Position numbers and translations under genes: made by a program. A model generated the notes under the pieces. That model was not told the origin of the DNA. It made no database searches and saw only the letters and a list, made by a program, of their open reading frames with translations. This document shows, piece after piece, positions 9,862 to 29,020 of a DNA stretch of 29,020 bases. Positions within the stretch are counted from its first letter, which is position 1, and every line of letters begins with the position of its first letter. The DNA comes from Clostridia bacterium (lineage in GTDB: Bacteria; Bacillota; Clostridia; Oscillospirales; Acutalibacteraceae), in contig JAUNQL010000001.1 of the NCBI GenBank assembly GCA_030536195.1, positions 1-29,020 on the forward strand. The letters run 5' to 3'.

Positions 9862-10024
9862 CAATTTTTTCAAAAAACTTTCGTAGAGTTTACACAAAGG
9901 ATTGCCATAATCTTTGGCAAACACAACATATAGTTTGATATGGCTAAAAACGCCACCAAATGGCATATATTGTGGAGAAAAAGTTTACAATTTGTTTATA
10001 TTTTCACCTTTTTCTGCTAATCGC

Positions 10025-10053
10025 TTGCAAACCCTCTCGCGCGCGTATATTAT
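10025..10053 (+). promoter_or_regulatory. Sigma-A promoter of rarA
   Basis: TTGCAA-17 nt-TATTAT about 37 nt upstream of the ATG. Confidence 0.65.
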
Positions 10054-10090
10054 AAATGGTATATTAGAAAAGTCAATGGAGGACCTAAAA

Positions 10091-11341
10091 ATGAGCTCAC
10101 CTCTAGCCGATCGTCTTCGTCCAACAACATTGGATGAAATGGTAGGACAAGAACACCTTTTGGGGCCAGGAAAAGCCCTTAGAAACATCATCGAATCAGG
10201 CGAGATTCCAAACCTGATTTTCTATGGCCCATCAGGTATAGGCAAGACAACTCTTGCCAGCATCATTGCAAAACAGACCAATAAGAGACTTTACAAGCTC
10301 AACGCAACCAACGCATCAGTGAACGATATCAAGGATATCATCGCTGATGTGGATACTCTTATGACTCCAAATGGTATCCTCCTCTATCTCGATGAGATTC
10401 AGTATTTCAATAAAAAGCAACAACAGTCACTCCTTGAGTTTTTGGAGAGCGGCAAGATAACCATGATTGCATCAACTACAGAAAATCCATATTTTTATGT
10501 ATACAATGCAGTTATCAGCCGTTGCACAGTATTTGAGTTTAAATCAGTTACGCCGGCCGAAATTGAAAAGGCCGTGCTTCGCGCATTTTCTATTATAAGT
10601 GAAGAGAACGGCGTGACTTTCGATATCGAGGACGGCTTAACGCTCGACATCGCGACCAGCGCTGGCGGCGATGTGCGCAAGGCAATCAATACAGTGGAAC
10701 TGATTGGCCTTGCCGCACTGGATGGCAAGGTGACGAAGGATCTCGTCACCGACATCACAGGCCACAGCGCAATGCGCTATGACCGTGCAGGCGACGACCA
10801 CTACGATATCCTCTCCGCTTACCAAAAGTCTATGCGTGGCTCAGACCCTGACGCTGCGCTCCACTATCTCGCAAGACTTTTGGAAGCAGGCGATTTGATA
10901 TCAGCTGTACGTCGCCTCCTTGTCTGCGCATGCGAGGACGTAGGCCTTGCATATCCTCAGATTATCCCTATTGTCAAATCCGCTTGCGACATCGCACTTC
11001 AAGTTGGACTCCCAGAGGCACAGATTCCACTTGCTGACGCAGTCATACTTGTTGCCACTAGTCCTAAGTCCAACTCTGGCGTCAGTGCAATCGAAGCTGC
11101 GATGGCAGACATCCAAAGTGGCAACTTTGGCGCCATCCCAAGAACCCTCCAAAACAAACACTTTGATGGAGAGGATCAGGATATCAAAGGTCAGTTCTAC
11201 AAATACCCTCACGTATTTCCAAATCACTGGCTTGAGCAACAGTATCTTCCTGATGCTATCAAAGATGTAACTTACTATGAATATGGAGATAATAAGATAG
11301 AGCAAGCCACAAAAGCTTACTGGGATCAAATCAAAAAATAG
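10091..11341 (+). CDS. rarA: Replication-associated recombination protein A (AAA+ ATPase, RarA family)
   Basis: PLADRLRP..LDEMVGQEHL, Walker A GPSGIGKTT, Walker B LDE, STTENP, SAYQKSMRGSDPDAA, C-terminal YKYPH; start set at ATG 10091 after GGAGG. Confidence 0.95.
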   Translation: MSSPLADRLRPTTLDEMVGQEHLLGPGKALRNIIESGEIPNLIFYGPSGIGKTTLASIIAKQTNKRLYKLNATNASVNDIKDIIADVDTLMTPNGILLYLDEIQYFNKKQQQSLLEFLESGKITMIASTTENPYFYVYNAVISRCTVFEFKSVTPAEIEKAVLRAFSIISEENGVTFDIEDGLTLDIATSAGGDVRKAINTVELIGLAALDGKVTKDLVTDITGHSAMRYDRAGDDHYDILSAYQKSMRGSDPDAALHYLARLLEAGDLISAVRRLLVCACEDVGLAYPQIIPIVKSACDIALQVGLPEAQIPLADAVILVATSPKSNSGVSAIEAAMADIQSGNFGAIPRTLQNKHFDGEDQDIKGQFYKYPHVFPNHWLEQQYLPDAIKDVTYYEYGDNKIEQATKAYWDQIKK

Positions 11342-23919: not shown

Positions 23920-25711
23920 ATTCTGCTTTTTCCTCGCGATGTGTTACTGCAATTCCAAGCTCATCAAGCTGAGCGTTGTCAACGCTGCTTGGGCAGGATG
24001 TCATAGGCTCTATGGCATCCTTATTCTTTGGATATGCGATAACATCGCGGAGAGTCTCAAGGCGAAGCATCTGCATGATAAGTCTATCAAGGCCGAGTCC
24101 CATGCCACCATGAGGTGGTGGGCCAAACTTGAAGGCATCGAGGAGATAGCCAAACTTCTGCTGAGCCTCTTCCTTGGTAAGACCAAGGAGATCAAAGATA
24201 CGAGACTGGAGCTCTGGGTCTGTGATACGGATAGAACCTGACGCGAGCTCAACGCCGTTGAGAACGAGGTCGTAGCACTTTGCACGAACCTTAGCCTTGT
24301 CGGACTCAAGGTACTCAAGACAATCGTCCATTGGAGCTGTGAATGGATGGTGCATAGCAACGAATGTCTGGAGCTCCTCGTCCCACTCAAAGAATGGGAA
24401 TTCTGTGATCCAAAGGAGATTGTATTTATCCTGTGGAATGATATCAAGCTTCTTTGCAGCCTCTTGACGGATTGCGCCGAGGATGCTCAAAACATGAGAG
24501 TTGTTTGTATCACCAATGATGAATACAACGTCACCCTGTTCTGTATTTCCAGCCTTTAAGATGGCATCCATCTTGTCCTCTGAGATGAACTTGCCAAATG
24601 ATGAACTTACGCCATCATCGGTCCAACGTACCCAAGCAAGTCCCTTAGCACCGATGCCCTTTGCCATCTCAGTGAGCTTGTCGATTTCCTTACGTGAGTA
24701 AATTGATGCTGCGTTCTTGGCAGTAATTGCACGAACACTACCGCCACCAGCGATTGCTGATTCAAATACACCAAATCCGCAATCCTTTACAATGTCAGAG
24801 ATATCATAAAGTTCCATGCCATAACGTGTATCTGGCTTATCAGAACCAAAGCGTTCCATTGCCTCCTTAAATGTAAGACGTGGAAGTGGAAGCTCAATAT
24901 CAACATCAAGTGCTTCCTTAAATACGCGAACCATAAAGCGTTCGCCCATATCCAAGATGTCCTCCATATCAACGAAAGACATCTCAAGGTCTATCTGAGT
25001 AAACTCTGGCTGACGGTCAGCACGAAGATCCTCGTCTCTGAAGCAGCGAGCGATTTGCATGTAGCGGTCAAAACCTGCTACCATGGAGAGCTGCTTATAA
25101 AGCTGTGGAGACTGAGGAAGCGCATAGAAGTCGCCATTGTGAAGTCTGCTTGGAACAAGGAAGTCACGTGCTCCCTCTGGAGTAGACTTGATAAGCATAG
25201 GTGTCTCTATCTCGATAAAACCATTCTCGTCGAAGAAATCACGAACAATCTTGGTAATCTTGTGACGCATCAAAATATTCTTCTGAAGGTCTGGACGACG
25301 AAGGTCTAAATATCTGTACTTAAGACGAATAAGTTCGTCTGTTTTGCAGTCCTCTACAATCTCAAATGGAGGTGTCTCAGACTTACCAAGGATGCGAAGG
25401 TCGCTAACAAAAATCTCAACCTCACCAGTTGGGATTTCAAGGTTCTTAGATGAACGCTCACGAACAACGCCCTTTGCCATCAAAACAAACTCTGAACGAA
25501 CAGAGAATGCCTTGTCAAAAACAGCCTTGTCTGTTGAATCGTCAAAAGCAAGCTGAACAATACCTGTACGGTCACGCAAATCAATAAAGATAAGCGCACC
25601 AAGGTCGCGCTGCTTTGCAGCCCAACCACAAACTACTACTTCCTGTCCTATGAATGAGGAATTAAACTCACCACAGTAATTGGTCCTCTTAAGACCGTCC
25701 ATCTTGTCCAT
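23918..25711 (-). CDS. aspS: Aspartate--tRNA ligase
   Basis: RTNYCG, LIFIDLRD, RLKYRYLDLRR, ALPQSPQLYKQ, FRDEDLRADRQPEFTQID, PPHGG.GLGLDR. Confidence 0.98.
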   Translation of the reverse strand: MDKMDGLKRTNYCGEFNSSFIGQEVVVCGWAAKQRDLGALIFIDLRDRTGIVQLAFDDSTDKAVFDKAFSVRSEFVLMAKGVVRERSSKNLEIPTGEVEIFVSDLRILGKSETPPFEIVEDCKTDELIRLKYRYLDLRRPDLQKNILMRHKITKIVRDFFDENGFIEIETPMLIKSTPEGARDFLVPSRLHNGDFYALPQSPQLYKQLSMVAGFDRYMQIARCFRDEDLRADRQPEFTQIDLEMSFVDMEDILDMGERFMVRVFKEALDVDIELPLPRLTFKEAMERFGSDKPDTRYGMELYDISDIVKDCGFGVFESAIAGGGSVRAITAKNAASIYSRKEIDKLTEMAKGIGAKGLAWVRWTDDGVSSSFGKFISEDKMDAILKAGNTEQGDVVFIIGDTNNSHVLSILGAIRQEAAKKLDIIPQDKYNLLWITEFPFFEWDEELQTFVAMHHPFTAPMDDCLEYLESDKAKVRAKCYDLVLNGVELASGSIRITDPELQSRIFDLLGLTKEEAQQKFGYLLDAFKFGPPPHGGMGLGLDRLIMQMLRLETLRDVIAYPKNKDAIEPMTSCPSSVDNAQLDELGIAVTHREEKAE

Positions 25712-27072
25712 TAAAACTTGCCTCCAAAAAGTGAATTGAAATCTATTCCACTGATATCAACGTCTTTCAAATCGTCACCTAAATCAAGGTTGCTTACTGA
25801 TTGCTTAATTGATATCTCAACAAAGTCCTCTGCCAAAGTATCAAGTTTTACCTCTACTTCTTCGCCAGAATCCATGTTCTTAAGCTTTGCTGTGCCTGAT
25901 TGAAGTTCGTCATCACCGATGACTACTACATACTCAGCACCAATTTTGTTTGCGTACTTCATCTGTGCCTTGATGCCACGATTTGATACATCAAAGAGTG
26001 CAAACACACCCTCCTGACGGAGGTTGGTTGCAAGACCTGCGGCAAAGAGGCTTGCGGCCTCACCTGCTGGTGCAATGTAGATGTTGCACCTCTGCTCCTC
26101 TGGGAGCTCGATGCCCTGCTGCTCGAGTACGAGCATCAAGCGTTCGAGGCCCAAACCAAAGCCGAGTGCAGGTACATGGTTGCCGCCAAGCTCCTCGCAG
26201 AGGCCGTCATATCGACCGCCGCCACATACGGTGCCCTGGGCACCTATGCCTGTTGCAACGAACTCAAATACTGTCTTGGTGTAATAGTCAAGACCACGTA
26301 CGATTGTAGGGTTTACCTTATATGGAATGCTCATAGCTTCAAGATTTTTCTTGAGGCTCTCGAAGTGAGCACTACAATCATCACAGAGGAAGTCGAGTAC
26401 AACTGGAGCATCCTTTGCAATCTCAGAGCAAACTGGGCTCTTGCAGTCAAGGATTCTCATTGGGTTACGCTCAAGTCGTGAGAGGCATGTCTCACAGAGT
26501 TCGCCCTTCTTGCTCTCAAAGTATGCCTTGAGTGCCTCCTGATACTTAGCACGGCATGTTGGGCAGCCAATTGAGTTGATCTGAAGCTCAAGTCCCTCAA
26601 TACCAAGGAAGCCAAATATCTCACTTGCAAGTGAGATTACCTCTGCATCAGCGGCAGCGCTCTCAGCGCCAAAGCACTCAACACCAAACTGGTGGAACTC
26701 ACGAAGGCGGCCAGCCTGTGGCTTTTCATACCTGTAGCAAGATGTGAAATAATATACCTTCTGTGGCAATGCATCATTAAAAAGTCCGTGCTCTAAGAAA
26801 GCTCGAACTGCACCAGCAGTACCCTCTGGACGAAGAGTGATTGAACGACCACCCTTGTCCTCAAAAGTATACATTTCCTTTTGAACTACATCAGTTGTAT
26901 CGCCAACAGAGCGATTAAAAAGCTCTGTGTGCTCAAATACAGGCGTGCGAATCTCACGGAATCCAAAGTTGCCAGCGATGTCAGCTATAGTTGCTTCTAC
27001 GAAGCGGTTTTTATAGCTCTCGCTTGGGAGGATGTCCTCCGTGCCCTTGATTGCACTAGTCAATAATGCCAT
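25711..27072 (-). CDS. hisS: Histidine--tRNA ligase
   Basis: LRPEGTA, RYEKPQAGRLREFHQFG, VRGLDYY, GGGRYDGL, FGLGLERL; stop overlaps the aspS start (TAATG). Confidence 0.98.
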   Translation of the reverse strand: MALLTSAIKGTEDILPSESYKNRFVEATIADIAGNFGFREIRTPVFEHTELFNRSVGDTTDVVQKEMYTFEDKGGRSITLRPEGTAGAVRAFLEHGLFNDALPQKVYYFTSCYRYEKPQAGRLREFHQFGVECFGAESAAADAEVISLASEIFGFLGIEGLELQINSIGCPTCRAKYQEALKAYFESKKGELCETCLSRLERNPMRILDCKSPVCSEIAKDAPVVLDFLCDDCSAHFESLKKNLEAMSIPYKVNPTIVRGLDYYTKTVFEFVATGIGAQGTVCGGGRYDGLCEELGGNHVPALGFGLGLERLMLVLEQQGIELPEEQRCNIYIAPAGEAASLFAAGLATNLRQEGVFALFDVSNRGIKAQMKYANKIGAEYVVVIGDDELQSGTAKLKNMDSGEEVEVKLDTLAEDFVEISIKQSVSNLDLGDDLKDVDISGIDFNSLFGGKF

Positions 27073-27119
27073 GTTTAAAGCCTCCGTCGTATACGATTAA
27101 ATAGTTGAATAACGCGTTA

Positions 27120-27148
27120 ATTATAATACAAGAGCCGTGCTTTTGCAA
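27120..27148 (-). promoter_or_regulatory. Sigma-A promoter of hisS-aspS
   Basis: Minus strand TTGCAA-17 nt-TATAAT; the -35 lies in the loop region of the upstream terminator. Confidence 0.72.
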
Positions 27149-27165
27149 TAAAAAGCACGGCTCAA
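27126..27165 (-). terminator. Intrinsic terminator after the mgsA-like gene
   Basis: 13-bp perfect stem GAGCCGTGCTTTT/AAAAGCACGGCTC (27132-27144, 27151-27163), minus-strand tail TTGTATT. Confidence 0.78.
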
Positions 27166-27175
27166 TTTCGCTATT

Positions 27176-27583
27176 TTAGTTGTTCTTTGGGTTAACGATG
27201 TCACGCCAATCAAGGTCACCACGTGCAAGTGAGTGGATGAGTGCCTCTGCTGTTGCAATGTTGGTTGCAACTGGGATGTTGTGTACGTTGCAAAGTCTCA
27301 AAAGATTGGCCTCGTTAGGCTCGTTTGGCTTTGGATTAAGTGGATCGCCAAACATCAAAAGAAGGTCGATTTCATTACATGCAATTCGAGAAGCAATCTG
27401 TTGCTCGCCACCCTGAGAACCACTTAAAAATCTCTGGATTTCAAGACCTGTTGCCTCAGACACAATTTTACCTGTAGTTCCTGTTGCACAGAGAGTGTGC
27501 TTGGACAAAATTCCACAGTAAGCTATACAGAACTGTGTCATAAGTTCCTTTTTAACATCATGTGCAATAATTGCGATGTTCAT
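27176..27583 (-). CDS. mgsA: Methylglyoxal synthase homolog with substituted catalytic residues
   Basis: IAHD.KK, ATGTTG, SG.QGG.QQI, DPL, LLRLC..HNIPVATN.ATAE; start set at ATG 27583 after GGGAGG. Confidence 0.88.
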   Translation of the reverse strand: MNIAIIAHDVKKELMTQFCIAYCGILSKHTLCATGTTGKIVSEATGLEIQRFLSGSQGGEQQIASRIACNEIDLLLMFGDPLNPKPNEPNEANLLRLCNVHNIPVATNIATAEALIHSLARGDLDWRDIVNPKNN

Positions 27584-27625
27584 CGTTATGCCTCCCGATA
27601 GATACACATTTACTAGGTAAAGTCT

Positions 27626-27654
27626 ATTTTAACATAAAATACACACGTGAACAA
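27626..27654 (-). promoter_or_regulatory. Probable promoter of the mgsA-like gene
   Basis: TTGTTC-17 nt-TAAAAT with TGn extension. Confidence 0.5.
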
Positions 27655-27678
27655 TAGGTTTTTGTAAAAATTAAACAA

Positions 27679-28410
27679 TCAAAGCTTGAGTGGAACGTGC
27701 TCGCCCTCGAGTCGACGTGCCACACGTTTCATTGCTTTTACAGCTTTGCCATTTGGATCAACAAGCTCACCGTTTTGCATTGACAAAACGAGGCCCTTGT
27801 CCTCTGGTACTACGCCAACAAGCTGAACGCCAGTTGCATCAACAACCTCATCGATGTTGAGTGCTCTTCCTCCGAGCACTACACCCTTTTGGAAGCGGTT
27901 AATGATGAGCCTTGCTTCAACACCCGCGTCGGCTGCCTTCTCAGCAGCAACACCTGCGCTTCTAACACAGACATTATCCGGTGTAGAAACAATAATAGCC
28001 ATATCCGCAACGCCAAGAGCAGCCTCAAAAATTGGGCCGACGCCCGCTGGGCAGTCCAAGATAATATAATCAAACTCGTGGTCGTAGATTGATACGAGCT
28101 TACGCATGTCCGCTGCTGAAACATCAACGTCATACGTTGGCGCAGCAAGGAGTTTTGGACCACCAGTGGTAATGAGGGCAGACCTTGTATCTATGTTGCC
28201 CTCGATAATGTCATACCAGTCATAGAGCACAAGGCTGCTGACAGACAACATAATATCAAGTGTTCTAAGTTCAACATCACAGTCTATCATCAAAACCTGA
28301 TACCCTTGAGAACAGAGTATCTTGGCATAAGTAGTGGAGAGAGTTGATTTGCCAACTCCACCCTTTCCGGATGTAAACAATATTTTCTTTCCTGACAAAT
28401 CGCGACGCAT
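27679..28410 (-). CDS. minD: MinD-like ATPase (C-terminally short, divergent)
   Basis: Deviant Walker A SGKGGVGKS, IDCD..LR.LD, DYIILDCPAG, LIINR, GVVPED; located directly after a PBP gene. Confidence 0.8.
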   Translation of the reverse strand: MRRDLSGKKILFTSGKGGVGKSTLSTTYAKILCSQGYQVLMIDCDVELRTLDIMLSVSSLVLYDWYDIIEGNIDTRSALITTGGPKLLAAPTYDVDVSAADMRKLVSIYDHEFDYIILDCPAGVGPIFEAALGVADMAIIVSTPDNVCVRSAGVAAEKAADAGVEARLIINRFQKGVVLGGRALNIDEVVDATGVQLVGVVPEDKGLVLSMQNGELVDPNGKAVKAMKRVARRLEGEHVPLKL

Positions 28411-28423
28411 ATCATTTACCCCC

Positions 28424-29020
28424 TTACTTGATTACTGTGTTGTATTGCTGAACTGATTGAAGTTCTTTCTCTGAGAAATAGTAGTTGTAAATATCCGCAG
28501 CAATTGATGCGGTCAAAGCACCTTGGTTTGCTGTCTCAACAACGATAGCTATTGCTATCTCTGGCTTTTCATATGGTGCGTATGTGATAAGGAAACCGTT
28601 GTTTCCTTCGTAAATTACACCATCAATTTTCTTGGCAACCTCTGATGTACCAGTCTTGGCAGCAGCCTTGACTGGGATGTTGGCAAACGCATCTTTACAG
28701 AAGCCCTCGTGAGCAACCTTGTACATGCCCTCTTGAACCAACTTGAGGTTGTGCTTGTCTATACCAAGTTCGCTCTCTACTACAGGGTCCTTCGTCAAAA
28801 CAGTTTCGCTATAGTCGTAAGTCAAAATTGCCTTAACAAAATGCGGAATATACTTGGTGCCACCATTCGCAAGAGTTGCACAATAGTTGCACATCTGAAG
28901 AATTGTAAACTGGTGATCAGACTGACCAATAGCTGCCTGAACTGTATCACCTGGGTGCCACGTGCCACCCTGAGACTCACGGTATTCCTTACCAGCAAGG
29001 ATACACTCAGCCTCACTTAT
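28424..29020 (-). CDS. Class B penicillin-binding protein, PBP2/MrdA-like (3' part; runs off the window edge)
   Basis: Frame is open to the edge: GDTVQAAIGQS...QM..Y.ATLANGG...AAKTGTSE...NGFLITYAPYEKPEIAIAIVVE; mrdA identity inferred from the adjacent minD. Confidence 0.88.
   Translation of the reverse strand: MSEAECILAGKEYRESQGGTWHPGDTVQAAIGQSDHQFTILQMCNYCATLANGGTKYIPHFVKAILTYDYSETVLTKDPVVESELGIDKHNLKLVQEGMYKVAHEGFCKDAFANIPVKAAAKTGTSEVAKKIDGVIYEGNNGFLITYAPYEKPEIAIAIVVETANQGALTASIAADIYNYYFSEKELQSVQQYNTVIK

Follow-up and report, generated by a model that had tools for sequence, protein, structure and literature searches.

A candidate pseudoenzyme descended from methylglyoxal synthase at the end of a cell-wall elongation gene cluster in Clostridia

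The window, the whole 29,020-nucleotide stretch analysed here, encodes an MgsA homolog of the methylglyoxal synthase (MGS) family in which the catalytic residues D71, H98 and D101 are all replaced. Does the gene still encode a methylglyoxal synthase and, if not, what has kept it intact? An earlier note, made from the letters of the window, had proposed a pseudoenzyme with an undamaged phosphate pocket. The gene, its signals and the three replaced codons are as follows.

27176..27583, minus strand: mgsA-like CDS, 135 amino acids plus stop, MGS fold, with E60, N87 and N90 replacing catalytic D71, H98 and D101
27583-27581, minus strand: start codon ATG of the mgsA-like gene
27178-27176, minus strand: stop codon of the mgsA-like gene
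27591-27596, minus strand: ribosome-binding site GGGAGG, 7 nt 5' of the ATG, read from the sequence
27406-27404, minus strand: Glu60 codon GAG, equivalent to D71 (catalytic base of E. coli MGS) in an ungapped alignment
27325-27323, minus strand: Asn87 codon AAC, equivalent to H98 in the same alignment
27316-27314, minus strand: Asn90 codon AAC, equivalent to D101 in the same alignment
27163-27132, minus strand: terminator-like hairpin 3' of the mgsA-like stop, with a 13-bp stem including 7 G-C pairs

E. coli MGS numbering, in which active-site positions are given below, equals the residue number of the mgsA-like protein plus 11. The protein was aligned without gaps by phmmer to solved MGS structures from B. 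subtilis (6F2C, E=1.4e-39), Thermus (1WO8) and E. coli (1B93). This alignment bears out the claimed changes of D71 to Glu, H98 to Asn and D101 to Asn, and the earlier alignment by eye proves correct. The residues described as retained are likewise all present, namely H8, D9 and K12 (H19, D20 and K23), T34-G35-T36-T37 (T45-T48), S54-G55 (S65-G66), D80 (D91) and R96 (R107), as are the two peptides quoted by the earlier note, SGSQGGEQQI at residues 54-63 and FGDPLNPKPNEPNEANLLRLC at residues 78-98. The catalytic roles that it gave to the triad in the E. coli enzyme are consistent with the literature, in which D71 is the catalytic base and H98 an accessory residue that is not critical for the chemistry (PMC7843640), and with the Catalytic Site Atlas, where the MGS entries are H19, G66, D71, D91, H98 and D101 (PMC1877815). 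Phosphate is held in MGS by K23, S65 and T45-G49 (PMC7843640).

Membership of the MGS family is indicated by model matches, an alpha/beta fold and the phosphate-binding residues, with the catalytic Asp71, His98 and Asp101 missing. The mgsA-like protein scores 43.5 bits against the MGS domain model PF02142 (cut-off 24.1) and 147.9 bits against NF003559 (cut-off 84), and it barely passes the methylglyoxal synthase equivalog model TIGR00160 (148.6 bits, cut-off 146.9), below which 34 of 121 family-level genomes fall. The AF2 model has a pLDDT of 91.4, with lower confidence in the 10-residue blocks 51-60 and 81-90 in which E60, N87 and N90 lie. Foldseek matched this model to 6F2C, 1WO8 and 1B93 with TM scores of 0.84-0.93 and rmsd of 1.4-1.7 Å; the values for B. 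subtilis MgsA (6F2C) were TM 0.84-0.93, rmsd 1.4 Å and 54-55% identity. According to their PDB titles, entries 1S89 and 1S8A are E. coli H98N and H98Q mutants crystallised with phosphoglycolate bound, and position 98 is therefore dispensable for ligand binding.

The signals around the gene had been described as intact, which holds for the reading frame, the ribosome-binding site and the terminator-like hairpin and is not borne out for the promoter. A consensus scan, at its thresholds, detected no sigma-70-type promoter between the MinD-like gene upstream and the mgsA-like gene; an extended -10 element upstream of the mgsA-like gene, TGTTAAAAT, was spotted by eye and is a plausible but unproven candidate. 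The 103 nt between the mgsA-like stop and the hisS start (27073-27175) contain only the hairpin, which fits an intrinsic terminator, and a promoter-like site ahead of hisS that overlaps it (TTGCAA-17-TATAAT, 27148-27120). The corresponding gap ranges from -1 to 860 nt among relatives. Rfam detected no T-box in 27073-27175 and gave no match in a scan of 25500-29020. A sequencing-run search for expression data returned no RNA run, just two DNA metagenome runs (5% of sampled words).

To measure selection on the gene we compared it with its counterpart in another genome of the same genus (G051), using the neighbouring hisS as an internal conservation yardstick. The two mgsA-like proteins are 96.3% identical, with dN of 0.031, dS of 1.54 and omega of about 0.02, an approximate value since dS is near saturation. 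In the same pair of genomes identity is 80% for HisS and 58% for the MinD-like protein, and this ranking of mgsA-like above HisS above MinD-like was repeated in eight further genome pairs. The identity above that of HisS and the low omega therefore place the mgsA-like gene among the better-conserved genes of its genome, and it is no relic. Purifying selection is thus strong, and the protein falls under the operational definition of a pseudoenzyme as an enzyme homolog with key catalytic residues missing that is under purifying selection. G051 carries the identical E/N/N triad (Glu, Asn and Asn at 71, 98 and 101) in its mgsA-like protein, and the substitutions thus extend beyond this one assembly. 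The earlier statement that the gene does not look like decay stands on the intact frame and ribosome-binding site, on the omega, on the shared triad and on the comparison with HisS.

A set of 121 sequences was made up of the query and its 120 closest database clusters, almost all of which share at least 85% identity with the mgsA-like protein. The named sources of these clusters are MAGs labelled Acutalibacteraceae, Ruminococcaceae, Oscillospiraceae or Clostridia, and the label given to the protein there is 'methylglyoxal synthase'. The order is probably GTDB Oscillospirales and, on the source names of close matches, the family probably Acutalibacteraceae. Nearly all other columns are invariant in this set, and the triad positions are mixed: Ala, Asp and Glu occur at position 71 in 48, 40 and 33 sequences, respectively; position 98 has Gly in 67, Met in 24, His in 20, Asn, Ser and Thr in three each and Arg in one; and position 101 has Asn in 94, Ile in 23 and others in the remainder, with Asp in none. 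The exact E/N/N combination was found in two of the 121 clusters, query included.

A wider survey took one genome per genus from 120 genera of the window's GTDB family, from which 124 matches were fetched, together with a further 150 genomes that represent 26 families of the order. A family-model match was detected in 115 of the 120 genera and in 147 of the 150 other genomes. Identity to the window's protein is 60-96% for most members of the main ortholog group in the family and falls to about 42% in a few outliers. Just one member of the group has D/H/D; the commonest triad is D/H/N, and D/G/N, D/N/N, A/H/D, A/N/D, S/D/D and G/H/K also occur. E/N/N was confined in the family sample to the window's protein and G051. 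The order sample gave the same picture, with many different routes of triad decay; D/H/D was kept in most members of two families (f17 and f23) and in some members of three others (f2, f12 and f20). The suggestion that E71/N98/N101 might mark a conserved clade was therefore not upheld, as the pattern is restricted to the genus and is one of about 96 degenerate triads. What is conserved is the loss of constraint on the triad, not E/N/N itself.

Two further observations were made in these surveys. The triads E71/Y98/D101 and D71/Y98/D101 turn up repeatedly and are stable within families, both in this order (L215-L218, L209 and L174, from families f26, f22 and f6) and in other orders (L236, L238, L239 and L242). 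These two combinations may be functional versions of the active site and not products of decay, and the orthologs without D/H/D are not all necessarily dead. Separately, two very divergent syntenic orthologs (L123, G020:C1:153613-153954, and L124, G055:C20:3533-3892), with 42-49% identity, have lost the TGTT phosphate loop and kept K23 and T45; both come from genomes of about 1.3-1.4 Mb.

To compare the triad with the rest of the protein, we collected 188 orthologs from 26 families of the order that share a common gene context (PBP2, MinD-like, mgsA-like, hisS). A FastTree tree was built from 213 sequences, changes per site were counted across the 188 orthologs by the Fitch method and site rates were estimated using IQ-TREE on the fixed tree. 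The tree is based on a single 135-residue protein and the change counts are approximate: 85 changes at H98, 54 at D71 and 52 at D101, which rank 5th, 18th and 21st of 135 sites, against a median of 21. The chance of the three named sites all falling in the top 21 is 0.003. At the other extreme, K23 and T45 changed once each, T48 three times, G66 four times, D20 seven times and D91 eight times, and K23, T45, T48 and G66 are all kept in 181 of the 188 orthologs. Asp is absent at position 71 or 101 in 162 orthologs, and a carboxylate is absent at 71 in 65 and at 101 in 122. The residues at position 71 are Asp (105), Ala (20), Glu (18), Ser (12), Gly (10), Val (7) and others, and those at position 101 are Asn (83), Asp (55), Ser (11), Glu (11), Lys (7) and others. 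Further sites that are fixed in canonical MGS are also released here (P67, A95, V102, A104 and V111), most of them in or beside the active-site loop.

We consider it likely, from these sequence comparisons, that the mgsA-like protein is a pseudoenzyme that descends from a real methylglyoxal synthase and now serves a non-catalytic role. The function selected in this group cannot be the known chemistry, since Asp, Glu and Ala replace one another at the base position among close relatives and the nearby loop drifts. The core of the reading given in the earlier note is thus retained, supported by the alignment, by purifying selection and by catalytic sites that vary freely in the 188 orthologs where the phosphate residues are near-invariant; E/N/N as the signature of a clade is the part that has to be given up. 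The conservation of the phosphate-binding residues suggests that a phosphate-bearing ligand is still bound, and we regard phosphate or a phospho-metabolite as the probable ligand of the mgsA-like protein.

The alternative that survives best, although we regard it as quite improbable, is a working but attenuated MGS in which Glu60 serves as the base and self-poisoning by methylglyoxal is kept in check by the low activity. E60 is a carboxylate that could confer trace activity on the window's protein, H19, D20 and D91 are intact, and the TIGR00160 score lies just above the equivalog cut-off. In addition, H98 is not critical for the chemistry (PMC7843640), and the gene is the sole MGS-family gene found in the window's genome, which is 79% complete. 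Among proteins at least 85% identical, however, Ala at 71 is as frequent as Asp or Glu, and across the order a carboxylate is missing at 71 from 65 of the 188 orthologs and at 101 from 122. The loop residues around the triad have been released too, and the E. coli D101N mutant of Saadat and Harrison (1998) is said to have a kcat lower by several orders of magnitude.

A neofunctionalised enzyme, in which the phosphate pocket is reused for a different phospho-substrate, would also account for the conservation of the phosphate-binding residues and of H19, D20 and D91, and the MGS-like fold does perform other chemistry in PurH, a lower-ranked structural match of the model. A new mechanism should fix new residues, though, and pocket positions 67, 71, 98 and 101 belong to the sites that vary most between close relatives, with about 96 triads in all. 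The degenerate set shows no newly invariant residue of its own; the clade-specific invariants are common to the D/H/D syntenic orthologs, and several are also present, by eye, in B. subtilis MgsA. We therefore rate this explanation as very unlikely. A decaying gene or a sequencing artefact, to which three replacements that are each a single-nucleotide change might point, is effectively refuted by the intact frame and good ribosome-binding site, the recurrence of E/N/N in a second species, the low omega with identity above HisS, and the near-universal family matches in both the family and the order samples.

Outside this order, the ortholog in other orders of Clostridia is 62-72% identical and has D/H/D in 20 of 29 cases. 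This indicates that the degenerate state is derived and arose within this order. In those orders too the gene follows MinD, and in many cases there is an additional ORF upstream whose size would suit MinE or RodA. The ancestral state was therefore a genuine synthase, encoded last in the mre/min cluster. A second, distant group of MGS paralogs (n=25) is 36-45% identical to the window's protein, forms a clade with support of 0.984 and has D/H/D in all members, without a common gene context. Mean pairwise identity is 61% among these paralogs vs 67.5% in the syntenic group. About 10% of the genomes sampled from the order have the distant paralog (L002-L009 and L136-L161, e.g. G030:C5:118454-118873), and in many copies the match to the family model extends to about position 141 of 143. 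It was seen only alongside a degenerate syntenic copy (18 of 173 vs 0 of 15), a comparison that involves small numbers, related genomes and second hits that were partly fetched. This is suggestive only of genomes with the distant paralog drawing their real synthase activity from it; the paralog may be a horizontally acquired real synthase.

The gene order PBP2, MinD-like, mgsA-like, hisS is conserved. The neighbours in the window are listed below; in G051 the full order is maf-mreB-mreC-mreD-PBP2-MinD-like-mgsA-like-hisS-aspS.

28424..29020, minus strand: class B penicillin-binding protein (PBP2 type), C-terminal part, PF00905; runs off the contig end
27679..28410, minus strand: MinD-like deviant-Walker-A ATPase, 243 amino acids, directly upstream of the mgsA-like gene and without a C-terminal membrane-targeting helix
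25711..27072, minus strand: hisS, downstream neighbour

In 158 of the 188 loci the gene immediately upstream, on the same strand, is MinD-like, and the median gap between the two is 42 nt. The window's copy scores 170 bits against TIGR01968, below the cut-off of 212.9, and the Walker A motif SGKGGVGKS, including the signature lysine, is invariant in 40 orthologs. It ends in GEHVPLKL, its alignment to MinD stops at GEHVPLK, and all 40 orthologs end 0-9 amino acids past the GExVPL motif, so the membrane-targeting helix is absent. Searches of five genomes found MinE (PF03776) in none and no MinC (PF03775) match above the cut-off. The MinD-like protein appears as an orphan that evolves fast, as its identity within the genus is 58% vs 96% for its mgsA-like neighbour. 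A complex prediction for the MinD-like and mgsA-like proteins gave no answer (score 0.00), which counts neither for nor against an interaction. Five genomes of the family have no adjacent MinD-like gene and still have the mgsA-like gene beside PBP2; no MinD-like ortholog was found elsewhere in those five genomes, where the best matches had 23-31% identity. We considered a strictly MinD-dependent role and gave it less weight, since the mgsA-like gene is kept in these five genomes that lack the MinD-like gene.

We propose the following scenario for the pseudoenzyme. A descendant of a Firmicute-type MGS would close the mreBCD-PBP2-Min cluster in Clostridia, and in this order selection on its catalytic apparatus, comprising D71, H98, D101 and the surrounding 92-104 loop, has been lost. 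The fold, the phosphate-binding residues (K23, T45-T48 and S65/G66) and the remaining surface are still under very strong purifying selection. The protein would make little or no methylglyoxal, would still bind phosphate or a phospho-metabolite where the active site used to be, and would be retained as a ligand-dependent regulator or scaffold that is transcriptionally tied to the cell-wall elongation cluster. The role of DHAP/Pi sensor or scaffold put forward in the earlier note could be of this kind. More speculatively, the Clostridia-wide position of mgsA at the mreBCD-PBP2-Min end might reflect a second, non-catalytic function that makes cell-wall elongation or division respond to the amount of a glycolytic phospho-metabolite (DHAP or Pi), and that has become the sole function in this order; the catalytic residues would then decay while identity exceeds that of HisS. 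We hold this specific version to be unlikely. The repeated, independent knock-outs of D71, H98 or D101, reached in various ways, could even be an adaptive removal of toxic methylglyoxal production.

The protein is most likely non-enzymatic and mislabelled as methylglyoxal synthase in databases. A methylglyoxal bypass or a methylglyoxal-to-propanediol route would then be assigned in error to abundant gut Clostridia in metabolic reconstructions and metagenome profiles. A separate source of possible confusion in automated annotation is a RarA-type AAA+ ATPase in the window (9914-11341, plus strand), whose Pfam C-terminal domain is named 'MgsA_C' and clashes in name with MgsA. A small protein conserved at 75-96% identity over about 120 genera with drifting catalytic residues points to a strongly selected function beyond the known one. 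Its many independent inactivations amount to a natural experiment in which catalysis by MgsA could be told apart from a moonlighting role, if MgsA has one. The finding also suggests, in a form that can be tested, why mgsA stays linked to the mre/min genes in Clostridia; no explanation for this linkage was found in the literature searched, and a search for mgsA with min/mre genes gave no paper mentioning mgsA in its top 20. Full-text literature searches likewise found no description of catalytically degenerate or pseudo-MGS homologs.

The closest known system is the Firmicute MgsA, represented by B. subtilis 6F2C and by the C. difficile enzyme, which has been shown to be active and shares the residue numbering of the mgsA-like protein (PMC7843640). 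Length, fold and numbering are the same (H8, K12, TGTTG 34-38, S54, G55 and positions 60 and 87). In other Clostridia the Firmicute MgsA occupies the same position at the end of the mre/PBP2/Min cluster, and its phosphate-binding residues are intact here as well. The differences lie in the base, where Asp is replaced by Glu here and by Ala, Gly, Ser or Val in relatives, in the replacement of His98 and Asp101, and in the release of constraint on the active-site loop across the order. In B. subtilis, Crh reportedly binds MgsA; the window's genome encodes an HPr with His15 and Ser46, and an HPr/Crh-type partner was considered for the mgsA-like protein.

Two further systems are comparable in other respects. 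Caulobacter KidO is said to be an oxidoreductase homolog without catalytic residues in which the ligand pocket is preserved and whose target is the machinery of division or elongation. The concept is alike; the fold and lineage are unrelated, and the link to the elongasome here comes from gene neighbourhood only. The allosteric MGS-like domain of the carbamoyl phosphate synthetase (CPS) large subunit (e.g. 1CE8 with IMP) has the same fold and is the next-best structural match of the mgsA-like model, with a TM score of about 0.65. It differs in sequence (16-18% identity) and in being one part of a large enzyme, whereas the mgsA-like protein is free-standing. The CPS domain is non-catalytic, and its equivalent phosphate site binds allosteric nucleotides. 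Together with the phosphoglycolate-bound H98N and H98Q structures, this match is consistent with retained ligand binding, and by analogy the CPS domain provides a precedent for the MGS fold as a ligand sensor.
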